This document shows positions 222 through 11,839 of a stretch of 30,257 nucleotides of DNA, piece by piece. Each line of letters opens with the position of its first letter. Within the stretch, counting starts at the first letter, position 1. Location: positions 1-30,257 of the forward strand of contig JAWBON010000002.1 in assembly GCA_038826135.1 (NCBI GenBank). Reading direction: 5' to 3'. A program made the translations under genes and the position numbers. The notes below the pieces were generated by a model. That model worked only from the letters and a program-made list of their open reading frames with translations. It was not told where the DNA came from and did no database searches. This DNA comes from Candidatus Odinarchaeota archaeon (GTDB lineage: Archaea; Asgardarchaeota; Odinarchaeia; Odinarchaeales; Odinarchaeaceae).

Positions 222-1643
222 TTGCTTAAAGCTAAAAGACTGGGAGTTTACTCCTTGATCGGTATCATCCTGTTAACTGTGGGCTTATCTTTCACAATTT
301 ATAATAAGGCTCTTGTAAACGAGGCCCGCGAGTTGTACACTTTATCCATCGAGAACGGTTACACAGCTAATTTCACTATTAACTTAAACTATAATGATAG
401 GGTTCTAATCTATATTTCGCCGTTTAAGCAGGTCAACTACACTCTGACTATTAAAACAAGCAACGCTACTACAGTAATTAACTCAACTCAAATATATAAT
501 AAGACACTATTAATCACCGTAAACAGTTCTGAAACACATCGTTTCTCCTTAAATGAGCTTCCCCCCTTCCAGTATACTCAGATACGGTTTGAAATGGTTA
601 GATACGCTAATGAACCGGTGAACACTTATATCGTATTCGGTCTGCCGTTAACTATCATCGGAGTTCTACTTAGTATTCTAGGTTTCAGAGAGCTAGGTTT
701 CTTAAAGATTAAAATTGGAGGCCGCCCCAGCTACAGTTTAAAAGAGTTTTCTTTAATAATTGCGGGGGTTATGTCCTACTCGCTTATTATAATAATGCTG
801 CAGCGTTTTCCTATAGGCCTTATCTTCCAGGACTGGTTGATAATTGGATTACTGCTGTTTGTTTCACTTATGAACATAATATTAATTTATTTAATATCGA
901 TGATTTTAACCGGGGATAAACTTAAATTATTCTCCATACTCTTAGTTGCATTAGCTTATTTATGGATCCCCTTATCCTTAACATTTTTAATTCAATCACA
1001 AGCTATTGTATTTAACTATTATGACCCCGATAACTCACTCAGTTTTGAGCTTATTAAAGACTTTGCAGTAAACTATACAAGTATTTATTTTCAAATTATT
1101 TTACTTGTATTAATATTTCCATTATTCTACATATATCTCGGTTATAACTGGGGTAAATCCATTTCTATTGACACGGGTTCAAGTCAGGAAAACCAGCTTC
1201 CAACAACTCCTTTAACTTTATTGAAGAATCAGTTAATAGATTCTGTACATAAAAAAGACGCAGCCAGCTTCTTTAAAATTCTGCGTGAAGAAAGCATTGA
1301 AGCCTCAGCTATACTATATATAGTGATTAGAGAGTATGTGGATAAAGGTGTCTGTGAGTTCACTTATCATAAGCTGATTACAGAGTATAGTGACTTGTTT
1401 AATAAGAAGCTGTATGAACGGAAACCCGTTGAACATTTCTTAGCACCCTTGTCGCTTGTTGAACAGCCTTCTGGAAGATTTAAATTTTTCAAGTTGAACA
1501 CGGATGCTCAGGAAATAAAATTTATAGTTAAAAGTTTTAACCAGCACAAGAATTTAGAGTTTGCTAAATTTCTTGAGGATGCTTCAGGGGTTGGAGAGTT
1601 AAGAGAGAGGAAGCTTAAGTTCAGCGGCTCTGACCGTTTTTAA
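222..1643 (+). CDS. Multi-pass membrane protein: N-terminal TM, glycosylated extracellular domain, about 5 further TMs, cytoplasmic C-terminal domain (possibly winged helix)
   Basis: 473-aa ORF with hydrophobic segments at about aa 9-28 and 137-310. There are six N-x-S/T sequons in aa ~50-105 and a soluble charged C-terminal ~150 aa. An AT-rich TATA-like stretch lies at ~186-196. No family recognised. Confidence 0.7.
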   Translation: MLKAKRLGVYSLIGIILLTVGLSFTIYNKALVNEARELYTLSIENGYTANFTINLNYNDRVLIYISPFKQVNYTLTIKTSNATTVINSTQIYNKTLLITVNSSETHRFSLNELPPFQYTQIRFEMVRYANEPVNTYIVFGLPLTIIGVLLSILGFRELGFLKIKIGGRPSYSLKEFSLIIAGVMSYSLIIIMLQRFPIGLIFQDWLIIGLLLFVSLMNIILIYLISMILTGDKLKLFSILLVALAYLWIPLSLTFLIQSQAIVFNYYDPDNSLSFELIKDFAVNYTSIYFQIILLVLIFPLFYIYLGYNWGKSISIDTGSSQENQLPTTPLTLLKNQLIDSVHKKDAASFFKILREESIEASAILYIVIREYVDKGVCEFTYHKLITEYSDLFNKKLYERKPVEHFLAPLSLVEQPSGRFKFFKLNTDAQEIKFIVKSFNQHKNLEFAKFLEDASGVGELRERKLKFSGSDRF

Positions 1644-1654
1644 AACTGTTTTTG

Positions 1655-1693
1655 ATTTCCACCTTTACCTTAATGTATTTCCACCTTTATATA
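1655..1693 (+). promoter_or_regulatory. 13-bp direct repeat ATTTCCACCTTTA (1655-1667, 1677-1689) overlapping a TATA box TTTATATA (1686-1693)
   Basis: The exact repeat has a 22-bp period. The TATA lies ~28 nt upstream of the ATG at 1721, and a GGTGA SD is at 1712-1716. Confidence 0.6.
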
Positions 1694-1720
1694 GTATTAC
1701 AACAAAAAAATGGTGATAGT

Positions 1721-3277
1721 ATGAGTAAAAACACCATAAGAGCGTTAGCTATAGGAATAGCTTTACTATTCGCTGTGGGTTTAGCAGCCCCATCGCTTAT
1801 CCAGGCACGGCCAAGTCAGCTACCGGATGAATATGATTACATCGGTCACAGGTTCACAGAAACATCTTGGTCTACGGAAGTTGACTGGATGGATATATTT
1901 AGGCTAGCTGTTCAACAGGTTTCAGAGAGTTTGCCAGCAGCGGCTAACTTAACTGGTGTGATGCCGCCTGAATTCGATAATCTATCTGTTATGACATATC
2001 ACGCTTTCGTAAACCAGTATAATTACTGGATGCTCTACAGTGGGTTTGAATACATTTACTACACTGATGGTGTACATGAATTAAACGGTACAATGCCGAT
2101 GCAGACAATAATTCAATCCTATAAAACATCATCCGGGTTAGAAGTCTACTCTGTTCAAACATACCTTCTTATCGCAGCTTTTCAAGACGATAACGTTAAT
2201 GGTGTATTTGATAATGACAGTGAACATTTGTTTTTAACAGTAGGATTCGGATTTGATGTTTCTACTTGGCTTGGAATGTTTCCTAACTCTACTTTAGCTC
2301 GTGAAATATTCGAGACGCCTATGCTAGTTACAATTGAACCTCTTACACAGGTGAACGGTGGCTATGAATGGGGTATGAAATACAAGGGGATCAAACTATT
2401 GATTATAGACAGAGACGGGGGAACCCTCCTCGGTTTGATGAGTTTGAAAGAGTTAGATTTTCACTATGTTCTAGGCTTTGACCAAGCTAATGGGCGTGTG
2501 ACCATTAACACATATTACACTATCGGAGCACCTGAACGGCTTCTATTAAGCGACGGCACCTATATCTACAATGATCCCGCTCATGACAATTATACTCTAA
2601 CAGACTTCTTCTTAAGTTCTAATATAGTTCTCGGGATTGTGAACTTGCAGCTTACATCTATTATAGACCCGTACCACCACCCAGTTACGTCTGTAACTCA
2701 TAATGAAACAGCTGTTAATAGTTCTACTGAAGACCTGGATTTAAGTGATAGCTGGTATACAACCTACGCTGGTGAGGAGAGAGTTTTCCAAGTCGACTTT
2801 GGAACAAAGAAAACCTATACTACAACCCATCCGAATGGTACTGGGACAGGGGAACACCTTGCAATAACAAGGTTGTACAATGCTTATCTGGGTAAAGGTA
2901 TCCTTGAAGCGCCTGTTTACGCGGTTTCAGCTGCTTTAATAAATCTTCCTTCAGCGATAGCTGTATTATACATGTCTGAGAATATGTTAGCAGGGATTAG
3001 AGCTTTATTCGGTATACTGTTCCCATTCATCCCGAACGGTGAAGAAATATTAGAGAATATAAACACGGTTTTCCCACTTAACATTGAAGCCAACGCTAAC
3101 TATTATGTGATATATTATCCTGCGTGGAAAGGTCAGATAGTTGAACATGACCCTGTGTTTATCGCGTTCGCTGATCTTTCATTTCTACTGAACCCTGCGA
3201 TTCTAGCACCTTTAGTGGTTATCGGTATAATAGCTGTTGTCATTGTAGCTATGGTTATTATAAGGCGTAGACGTTAA
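1721..3277 (+). CDS. Secreted, C-terminally membrane-anchored cell-surface glycoprotein
   Basis: Start moved to ATG 1721 (SD GGTGA). Signal peptide MSKNTIRALAIGIALLFAVGLAAPSLIQA, nine N-x-S/T sequons, and a C-terminal TM followed by RRRR. Confidence 0.75.
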   Translation: MSKNTIRALAIGIALLFAVGLAAPSLIQARPSQLPDEYDYIGHRFTETSWSTEVDWMDIFRLAVQQVSESLPAAANLTGVMPPEFDNLSVMTYHAFVNQYNYWMLYSGFEYIYYTDGVHELNGTMPMQTIIQSYKTSSGLEVYSVQTYLLIAAFQDDNVNGVFDNDSEHLFLTVGFGFDVSTWLGMFPNSTLAREIFETPMLVTIEPLTQVNGGYEWGMKYKGIKLLIIDRDGGTLLGLMSLKELDFHYVLGFDQANGRVTINTYYTIGAPERLLLSDGTYIYNDPAHDNYTLTDFFLSSNIVLGIVNLQLTSIIDPYHHPVTSVTHNETAVNSSTEDLDLSDSWYTTYAGEERVFQVDFGTKKTYTTTHPNGTGTGEHLAITRLYNAYLGKGILEAPVYAVSAALINLPSAIAVLYMSENMLAGIRALFGILFPFIPNGEEILENINTVFPLNIEANANYYVIYYPAWKGQIVEHDPVFIAFADLSFLLNPAILAPLVVIGIIAVVIVAMVIIRRRR

Positions 3278-8903: not shown

Positions 8904-9197
8904 TTACTGCGGTTTCTCCGCTTCAACCTCCTCCATTTCCTCTTCAAGTTCTTCTATTGGAATCGGCGGCGGTGTAGTCATCATCGTATACCCGATCCAC
9001 GCTGCAATAGCCATAATTCCGATAATTGCAAGCCATAATGGTATAGCTAGAGCCCAAAGATAGTTAGCATATAAAGTGTTTCCAAGTGGAAGAACATCAG
9101 GTAATAATGGGACAAGTATAACCCAATACGTGTAGCCTATTATTATTATAACTGCTATTATAAATATTATAGCACCGTATGCTTTGTCCTTAGCCAT
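8904..9197 (-). CDS. Small two-TM membrane protein, DPM2/PIG-P-like
   Basis: 97 aa, two TMs and an acidic tail, with SD GGAGG. Motifs D...G, YT.WVIL.P, A.AIPL and I.Y.M resemble eukaryotic DPM2 and PIG-P (comparison from memory). Confidence 0.7.
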   Translation of the reverse strand: MAKDKAYGAIIFIIAVIIIIGYTYWVILVPLLPDVLPLGNTLYANYLWALAIPLWLAIIGIMAIAAWIGYTMMTTPPPIPIEELEEEMEEVEAEKPQ

Positions 9198-9235
9198 CAG
9201 CTTTCCTCCTGTTGTAGATTACTAAATCACTTACC

Positions 9236-9243
9236 TATATAAA
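9236..9243 (-). promoter_or_regulatory. TATA box (TTTATATA) of the DPM2/PIG-P-like gene
   Basis: Consensus archaeal TATA ~40 nt upstream of ATG 9197. Confidence 0.5.
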
Positions 9244-10465: not shown

Positions 10466-11839
10466 TTAAACAGTTATTTTCTTCATTAACTCCTCTATTA
10501 ATCCAAGACCCCAGTTTGAAAGTTTTTCAGCCTCATTTTTCAAGTCGGATTCAGCGTAGCATCTGATTATAGGCTCTGTTCCAGAAGCTCGGATTAACAC
10601 CCAACCTCTCTCCAGATATATTTTAACACCGTCGGTTGTATCAACTTCATAGTTTTTTAAACTCTCCTTTAACTTGTTTAATAATGTTTCCTTAACACTA
10701 TCTGGGCAATGTATTTTTTTCTTGACTTGATAGTATCTGGGTAGGCTGCTGGTTAACTTTGATAAAGGCTCCCCGGTTTCAGCTAAATATTCTATCATTA
10801 ACATCGCGCCCATCGCACCGTCTCTCACATACTGGTGGGGGGAGTAAAATATGCCGCCGTTCTCTTCCCCGCCTATTATGCCTTCAACTTCTTTCAAAGT
10901 TCTAGCCACTATTACGCTGCCAACCTTTGTTGTTATAAGCCGTCCACCGTACTCTTCAGTAACATCTTTTATCACGTTAGAGGATGCTATCGGAGTTACG
11001 ACTTTTCCTTTTTTAAATTTTGAAAGAGTTTTTATTATTAAAACTGCGAAGCTCCGGTCCCCTGTGATAAAATTGCCTTTATCGTCAACGAAGATAACTC
11101 TATCCGCGTCACCGTCATGAGCGATTCCTATATCCGCCCCTGTTTCTTTAACAGTTTTTTTAAGTAGCGTTAAAGATTCATCTGTGGGTTCGGGGGGTCT
11201 GCCTGGGAAAAACCCGTCTATGCTAGAGTTCACGGTCACCGTCGTGCATCCAGCTAGGCTTGTAAGATAAGGTGTTACAAGCCCTCCAACCCCGTTACCG
11301 GGGTCGACTACAACTTTCAAACCTGCTTTTTTAATCGCAGACACTTTAATCTTACCGAGTATGCTCTCCATATAAAGGTTTAAAACATCATCTCTTCTAT
11401 CAAACCCGCCTACGCTCATCCAATCGGCAGCATTATAATTATTTGAAAAATAAATTTTTTCAATCTCATTTTCCTCAACCGCCTGAACCTCTATACCGTC
11501 ACCGCCTACAACTTTTATACCGTTAAACTCTGGGGGATTATGGGAGGCTGTTACAATGATTGAGCCTTGCATTTCCCACTGTCTTGTAGCGTATTGTACA
11601 GCCGGTGTGGGAGCTAATCCAACATCTACAATGTTAACGCCTGTTGATAATAAGCCGGATATAACCGCGTTTTTTAACATTAAACCACTAACCCGCCCAT
11701 CACAGCCGATGAGGAGAGTGCCTTTTTTAAAATACGTTCCCACAGCTTTACCGATTTTAAGAGCAACTTCAGGTGTCATCTCTATGTTGGCGACACCCCG
11801 TATACCGTTTGTTCCGAATAATCTGCCCAAATTCACCAT
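10466..11839 (-). CDS. glmM: Alpha-D-phosphohexomutase (phosphoglucosamine mutase / PMM-PGM)
   Basis: LFGTNGIRG, phosphoserine motif TASHNP, metal loop DGDADR, sugar loop GEENGG, RASGTEP.IR. Substrate specificity is not determinable from sequence alone. Confidence 0.88.
   Translation of the reverse strand: MVNLGRLFGTNGIRGVANIEMTPEVALKIGKAVGTYFKKGTLLIGCDGRVSGLMLKNAVISGLLSTGVNIVDVGLAPTPAVQYATRQWEMQGSIIVTASHNPPEFNGIKVVGGDGIEVQAVEENEIEKIYFSNNYNAADWMSVGGFDRRDDVLNLYMESILGKIKVSAIKKAGLKVVVDPGNGVGGLVTPYLTSLAGCTTVTVNSSIDGFFPGRPPEPTDESLTLLKKTVKETGADIGIAHDGDADRVIFVDDKGNFITGDRSFAVLIIKTLSKFKKGKVVTPIASSNVIKDVTEEYGGRLITTKVGSVIVARTLKEVEGIIGGEENGGIFYSPHQYVRDGAMGAMLMIEYLAETGEPLSKLTSSLPRYYQVKKKIHCPDSVKETLLNKLKESLKNYEVDTTDGVKIYLERGWVLIRASGTEPIIRCYAESDLKNEAEKLSNWGLGLIEELMKKITV

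Follow-up and report, generated by a model that had tools for sequence, protein, structure and literature searches.

The window, which is the whole stretch of DNA analysed (30,257 nucleotides at the start of contig JAWBON010000002.1), originates from a 1.26 Mb, 93% complete assembly (GCA_038826135.1) of an Odinarchaeon, a member of the Asgard archaea. The gene of interest is an ATG-to-stop ORF of 97 codons on the minus strand, in which the residues quoted by an earlier sequence-only reading of this DNA were all recovered, and which encodes a small protein with two predicted transmembrane (TM) helices (Table 1). The co-oriented genes upstream encode an archaeal phosphoglucosamine mutase (GlmM) of the PGM/PMM family and a 378-aa SIS-domain protein, which resembles the isomerase half of GlmS and has no glutaminase domain. 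NCBIfam GlmS models match residues 8-245 of the latter, with scores far under their cut-offs. The SIS gene starts 13 nt downstream of the GlmM gene, and its product could act as a deaminase or as a GlcN-6-P synthase that uses ammonia.

A gap of 118 nt separates the SIS gene from the hairpin gene. Within this gap lie a TATA-box-like element, TTTATATA, and a Shine-Dalgarno-like GGAGG, suggesting that the hairpin gene may be expressed from its own archaeal signals; the length of the gap together with the separate TATA-like box would argue against strict co-transcription with the GlmM and SIS genes. Comparison with orthologues from the same genus gave 45-50 nucleotide differences, with 36-42 codons changed synonymously and only 3-4 non-synonymously, demonstrating that the gene is under purifying selection.

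Table 1 Features of the hairpin locus and of related loci discussed in the text. Positions without a contig or locus name refer to the window.
Feature	Location	Strand	Evidence
CDS, 97-aa DPM2/PIG-P-like hairpin protein	8904..9197	(-)	ATG-to-stop ORF, Pfam matches, codon comparison among congeners
Residues 3-31: short basic N-terminus (M-A-K-D-K-x-x-G), then predicted TM helix 1 with conserved Pro at its end	9105..9191	(-)	AlphaFold2 model
Residues 48-74: predicted TM helix 2, starting Y/W-A-x-A-I-P and ending A-W-I-G-x-T-M	8976..9056	(-)	AlphaFold2 model
Residues 67-78: W-I-G-x-T-M-x-T-T-P-P-P, where conservation in the family is highest	8964..8999	(-)	Alignments of 23 and 25 relatives
Residues 81-93: acidic Glu-rich C-terminal helix, inferred cytoplasmic	8919..8957	(-)	AlphaFold2 model
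Shine-Dalgarno-like GGAGG	9205..9209	(-)	7 nt before the ATG, read directly from the sequence
Archaeal TATA-box-like TTTATATA	9236..9243	(-)	Seen in the sequence itself, with its end 38 nt ahead of the ATG
SIS-domain protein, 378 aa	9316..10452	(-)	Pfam SIS
Archaeal phosphoglucosamine mutase GlmM	10466..11839	(-)	TIGR03990, 564.9 bits against a cut-off of 439
Longin-like/small GTPase protein, 313 aa	3509..4450	(-)	Pfam matches, weak for the longin-like region
Sole GT2 of the genome, 250 aa	contig 33 (L033), 1240..1992	(-)	
Weak second DPM2 match, 79-aa hydrophobic ORF	contig 3 (L002), 1441..1680	(-)	Below cut-off
Free-standing DUF4332 protein, 137 aa	contig 5 (L077), 1480..1893	(-)	Pfam DUF4332
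Tandem double hairpin, 181-aa ORF, another Asgard genome	L021, 568..1113	(+)	
Hairpin fusions with HHH_5/DUF4332	P0136, P0196, P0240, P0252		
Hairpin fusion with HHH_5/DUF4332	L012, 1264..1719	(-)	
Membrane-anchored DUF4332 gene, Thor locus	L036, 5152..5916	(+)	

DPM2 is the regulatory subunit of the eukaryotic type-II dolichol-phosphate-mannose (Dol-P-Man) synthase and also a component of the GPI-GlcNAc transferase, of which PIG-P (Gpi19) is an essential small subunit. The sequence-only reading had taken the protein for a relative of DPM2 that also carries traits of PIG-P, and had proposed a comparison with both Pfam families by hmmscan. Indeed, the DPM2 family (PF07297) matched with 40.9 bits (E 2.5e-10) over profile positions 2-71 of 75, well over the curated (gathering) cut-off of 27.3 bits, as it also did in a scan of the whole genome, placing the protein among the sequence relatives of DPM2. 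The PIG-P family (PF08510) matched positions 3-85 of 121 with 35.9 bits (E 7.9e-9), just under its cut-off of 39.3 bits, so that of the claimed likeness to PIG-P the features following the second TM helix (TM2) stand, but the score falls short of the curated threshold. When the tail was removed and residues 1-80 were searched alone, the DPM2 score remained at 41.8 bits and the PIG-P score dropped to 26.2 bits, suggesting that the PIG-P-like part is carried by the T-T-P-P-P stretch after TM2 and that the hairpin itself is DPM2-like. Among 25 diverse relatives, 17 matched DPM2 and nine matched PIG-P, the latter counted at E values up to 0.01. Searches of PDB sequences with the protein and with two profiles of its family returned no DPM2, PIG-P or PfDPMS match at E values up to 10, and thus no solved structure for any relative.

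It is highly improbable that this likeness is convergent or compositional, in the sense that any two-TM protein of this size might match DPM2 or PIG-P without common descent. The protein is indeed short and hydrophobic, unrelated TM families do match it weakly, the next best being a holin family at 20.8 bits, and the bare hairpin has no specific fold match in Foldseek. However, its DPM2 score lies 13.6 bits above the curated cut-off and 20 bits above the next unrelated family with the whole profile covered, another Asgard member reaches 54.3 bits with the same model, and an independent published phylogeny was built on the very same family, PF07297. In none of 14 control genomes did the DPM2 model score above its cut-off, which argues that the match is not plain hydrophobic bias. 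As a claim of homology, the link to DPM2 is well founded and the link to PIG-P marginal. A second candidate in the genome, a 79-aa hydrophobic ORF on contig 3, gave a DPM2 match below the cut-off (E 0.008) and was set aside as probably no relative.

Structural modelling with AlphaFold2, using 23 relatives, gave a two-helix hairpin as the sequence-only reading had predicted (pLDDT 85), with a short helix in the loop and a further helix at the C-terminus. Foldseek comparison of this model with the PDB returned nothing at E values up to 0.001; ArnC and GtrB appeared at E 3-4, values that are meaningless for a bare hairpin. The alignments of 23 and 25 diverse relatives revealed that Gly-8, Trp-67, Ile-68, Gly-69 and Pro-78 are invariant and that Asp-4, Thr-71 and Thr-75 are nearly so. 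On average across the family, the eight N-terminal residues contain 1.5 Lys and Arg and the 19-residue loop only 0.5, and the tail contains 9.9 Asp and Glu. This clustering of positive charges at the N-terminus and their scarcity in the loop predict, by the positive-inside rule, that both termini are cytoplasmic (N-in/C-in), and the W-I-G-x-T-M-x-T-T-P-P-P motif would then lie at the cytoplasmic end of helix 2. Both termini of DPM2 are known to be cytoplasmic. The resemblance to DPM2 thus comprises two TM helices, the inferred orientation, the full-length profile match above cut-off and a similar size (97 aa here, compared with 80-90 aa; PMC5526996). Unlike DPM2, the archaeal protein carries the acidic Glu-rich C-terminal helix and the invariant motif, both of which fit the PIG-P profile and not that of DPM2. 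In another Asgard genome, two DPM2-like hairpins are arranged in tandem within one 181-aa ORF, suggesting that the working unit may be a pair of hairpins.

An archaeal profile (A2), built from 25 archaeal members, detected the family in 354 of the 400 Asgard genomes, in 87 of the 90 genomes of high quality and in 79 of the 85 genera, mostly as a single copy. The Pfam model for DPM2, a family with eukaryotic named members, saw it in only 61 of the 400 genomes of the phylum, indicating that standard annotation misses most members. Scanning species-representative genomes for the motif of residues 67-78 yielded at least 469 carriers, including Thor-, Hermod-, Jord-, Borr-, Baldr- and Atabeyarchaeia as well as many Bathyarchaeia, and an exhaustive search gave 534 clusters at 50% identity, of which the best 150 all had E values up to 3.4e-10. 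The hairpin family is therefore near-universal and single-copy in Asgard archaea and widespread in Bathyarchaeia. A patchy spread, with a possible trade-off against GtrA_DPMS_TM (present in 211 of 400 genomes) or against orthologues of the glycosyltransferase described below, had been suggested by the Pfam DPM2 model alone and was overturned by the count of 354. Because the family is near-universal, no one client can be picked out from its distribution, which provides no discriminating co-occurrence signal. In public records, relatives are named 'hypothetical' or, wrongly, 'transcriptional regulator', and one cluster of Bathyarchaeota relatives in the ESM Atlas already bears an automatic DPM2-family name.

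DPM2 and PIG-P are poorly understood helpers of two essential ER pathways. One of these pathways provides the mannose that goes into N-glycans, O-mannose and GPI anchors; the other carries out the first step of GPI synthesis. A single-copy, almost universal Asgard counterpart offers a simpler system in which to ask what the hairpin does. The sequence-only reading had proposed that the protein could represent the ancestor of DPM2 and PIG-P before their duplication and point to an ER glycosyltransferase complex having had an archaeal forerunner, with novelty still to be checked. Its first proposal agrees with a dated tree published in Nature in December 2025, in which 'DPM2 and PIGP: 2.88-2.06 Ga' is listed among the earliest pre-LECA duplications of archaeal-origin ER proteins (PMC12872463), and is for that reason not new. 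The supplement of that study gives Asgard as the line of descent for PF07297, with an nFECA divergence followed by a duplication node and by the LECA nodes DPM2 and PIGP (PMC12872463). With the central idea in print and the DPM2-family name already on the ESM Atlas cluster, novelty is not supported; the proposed precursor of an ER complex is not borne out either, given that genome searches found no PIG-A domain, PIG-C/GPI2 or DPM3. What holds of the earlier interpretation is the kinship with DPM2, the PIG-P traits, the hairpin and the Asgard host. Since the Asgard origin and the pre-LECA duplication are published, a functional test is what remains.

In its genomic context, the hairpin gene occurs in at least four unrelated arrangements with nucleotide-sugar genes. 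The order GlmM, SIS and hairpin occurs in both Odin families, the SIS gene keeping its position upstream of the hairpin gene in each. In a second arrangement, a PGM/PMM gene adjoins the hairpin gene or lies within a few genes of it, as found in family f8, in family f33 (where the two are co-directional) and in Thor-type loci. The third, in 27 of the 74 loci with a hairpin ORF among 80 fetched, consists of an AdoHcy hydrolase gene, the hairpin gene and a gene for a sugar-1-phosphate nucleotidyltransferase of about 250 aa on one strand, all 27 loci being labelled Bathyarchaeota/Bathyarchaeia or Thermoproteota. In the fourth, found in Hermod-type loci, a nucleotidyltransferase of about 355 aa, whose best NCBIfam match is mannose-1-phosphate guanylyltransferase (below cut-off), is encoded divergently upstream of the hairpin gene. 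The hairpin gene is thus repeatedly linked to nucleotide-sugar genes, in at least four lineage-specific arrangements that span two phyla. The other neighbours are housekeeping genes encoding GatD, NAC, V-ATPase subunit F, AdoHcy hydrolase, dehydroquinase and a class-II (Asp/Asn-type) tRNA synthetase, indicating that the linkage to sugar genes may partly reflect inherited gene order. In the third arrangement (within L088-L151), the gene order is strongly conserved and often continues with genes for one protein of about 550 aa and one of about 455 aa; these were considered as membrane glycosyltransferases and rejected, both being soluble, with no hydrophobic segments and no Pfam match.

The GlmM gene and the GlmS-like SIS gene upstream lie on the route to UDP-GlcNAc, which raises the question of whether the hairpin could act in the manner of PIG-P within a proto-GPI-GlcNAc transferase, aiding a GT4 enzyme that moves GlcNAc from UDP-GlcNAc to an inositol lipid (of the glucosaminyl-archaetidylinositol type). 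The genome does hold seven GT4 genes, and the hairpin shares with PIG-P both the two-helix architecture and the T-T-P-P-P segment after helix 2, which matches PIG-P profile positions 73-85 and adds about 10 bits (from 26 to 36). PIGP and DPM2 are moreover duplicates of one Asgard-derived family in the published tree (PMC12872463). However, the PIG-P score stays below the Pfam cut-off, and in this 93%-complete genome neither a PIGA domain (PF08288, E values up to 10) nor GPI2/PIG-C (PF06432, E values up to 1) was matched. In other lineages, the best match of the neighbouring nucleotidyltransferases is mannose-1-phosphate guanylyltransferase, albeit below cut-off. A role of this kind therefore appears improbable.

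Fusion proteins point in another direction. In at least five separate clusters, the hairpin is joined through a charged linker to a C-terminal HHH_5 or DUF4332 domain, which in some relatives comes after the acidic stretch. They were all found in the search of representative clusters; a search for longer fused forms found none, which is weak evidence. To our knowledge, DUF4332 has no known function. A free-standing DUF4332 protein of 137 aa (145.8 bits against the Pfam model) from the Odinarchaeial genome looks by eye much like the domain fused in P0136, and in a Thor locus a membrane-anchored DUF4332 gene lies directly upstream of the hairpin gene. It is conceivable, if rather unlikely, that the hairpin is a generic membrane tether, whose cytoplasmic end and acidic tail recruit soluble proteins such as those with HhH/DUF4332 domains, glycosylation being a role of the eukaryotic descendants only. 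The universality of the family and its housekeeping neighbours would suit such a tether. Against it, the fusions are a small minority among the best 150 of the 534 clusters, the adjacency to DUF4332 is confined to one locus type, and a tether would not explain why GlmM/PMM and nucleotidyltransferase genes recur beside the hairpin gene across distant lineages. Lipid-linked sugar transferases are, furthermore, what both eukaryotic descendants serve.

The glycosyltransferase inventory of the genome comprises one GT2, one STT3 and the seven GT4 genes. The GT2 is a protein of 250 aa, in which no hydrophobic segment was seen by eye and which ends in a long basic C-terminal helix; the Arg/Lys-rich extension (residues 225-250) occurs only in this genus, orthologues elsewhere ending at about 220-235. 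Its nearest solved folds belong to three polyprenyl-phosphate glycosyltransferases, ArnC, the Dol-P-Man synthase of P. furiosus and GtrB; in these the enzyme is fused to membrane helices, whereas the GT2 of this genome has none. Its best NCBIfam matches are PpgS and AglJ, both below their cut-offs. This helix-less GT2 has close orthologues in some Asgard families but not in all, which speaks against the pairing with the hairpin that is proposed below. Other small partners known for such enzymes were searched for. DUF2304 was not found in the genome, GtrA_DPMS_TM was found neither there nor in three congeners (one of them a single contig), and the best match to DPM3 (PF08285) was 12.6 bits (E 0.15) inside a 564-aa frame, so that DPM3 counts as not found in this 93%-complete genome. 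Combined with the analogy to DPM2, these results make the hairpin the best candidate for the membrane partner of the GT2. The minimal Odinarchaeial genome, with one GT2, one STT3, seven GT4s and no other searched small partner, narrows the candidates to a handful.

We favour, tentatively and with a probability of about 0.45, the reading that the hairpin has no catalytic role and would be a membrane subunit in the synthesis of dolichol-phosphate sugars, with the helix-less GT2 as its most likely client. At the cytoplasmic membrane face it may assist the making of lipid-linked sugars (Man, Glc or GlcNAc) in an accessory role, like DPM2 for Dol-P-Man synthase, either by holding or activating an anchor-less glycosyltransferase or by presenting dolichol phosphate to that enzyme. 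The obvious candidate client in this genome would be the single 250-aa GT2, with its polyprenyl-phosphate glycosyltransferase fold and no TM helix; contact would probably be made through the acidic tail and through the invariant W-I-G-x-T-M-x-T-T-P-P-P motif, which would lie at the inner surface of the membrane, and the hairpins might work as a pair. Such a helix-less, DPM1-like GT2 in the same genome is a further parallel to the eukaryotic DPM2 system. Several observations count against this reading. Human DPM1 is tethered by DPM3 and not by DPM2 (Maeda 2000, Ashida 2006, as cited in PMC12992685), and the Odinarchaeial genome, in which no DPM3 was found, differs from the eukaryotic system in this respect. 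In the human enzyme, DPM2 works through DPM3. The hairpin-HhH/DUF4332 fusions likewise have no obvious link to glycosylation. The GT2 and hairpin genes lie on different contigs and share no operon. A predicted complex of the hairpin (alignment A1) and the GT2 (alignment A3) scored 0.00, a value that bears on binding in neither direction.

Partners of helix-less GT2 enzymes are also found in bacteria, where GacJ (DUF2304) works with GacI and the GtrA-like Rv3632 with PpgS. The Odinarchaeial pair would share the logic of these systems, in which a soluble GT2 that loads a lipid phosphate is stimulated by a small membrane protein, and PpgS is the top NCBIfam match of the Odinarchaeial GT2, although below cut-off. 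However, GacJ and Rv3632 belong to families unrelated to the hairpin, neither DUF2304 nor GtrA_DPMS_TM was found here, and the hairpin and GT2 genes are located on separate contigs. A further comparison, from archaea, is provided by the type-III Dol-P-Man synthase of P. furiosus (PDB 5mlz), in which the GT2 is fused to two pseudo-symmetric TM hairpins. Its catalytic domain is the fourth-ranked fold match of the Odinarchaeial GT2 and its best sequence match among solved structures, and the archaeal relative with the tandem double hairpin recalls its membrane part. The authors of that structure noted that the two hairpins could topologically correspond to DPM2 and DPM3, with TMH1 and TMH3 resembling human DPM2 (PMC5526996). 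Unlike the hairpin, the membrane domain of 5mlz is filed by Pfam under GtrA_DPMS_TM (PF04138) rather than DPM2, and the archaeal hairpin profiles gave no match to it at E values up to 10. According to a paper of 2026, the membrane parts of the eukaryotic and type-III enzymes can be expected to differ (PMC12992685).

A wider extension of the favoured reading, which we consider unlikely and put forward as speculation, is that a split 'type-II' dolichol-phosphate-sugar synthase, made up of a helix-less GT2 and a DPM2-like hairpin, might already have existed in Asgard archaea and Bathyarchaeia. The paired hairpin would then be a universal lipid-facing module binding dolichol phosphate for the enzyme, possibly aiding the transfer of the product across the membrane, and the pre-LECA duplication would have given one copy each to the Dol-P-Man synthase and the GPI-GlcNAc transferase. 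Elsewhere in the window, a 313-aa protein combines an N-terminal longin-like region with a small GTPase domain of the Arf/Roc/Ras type, an architecture that bears a eukaryotic signature.
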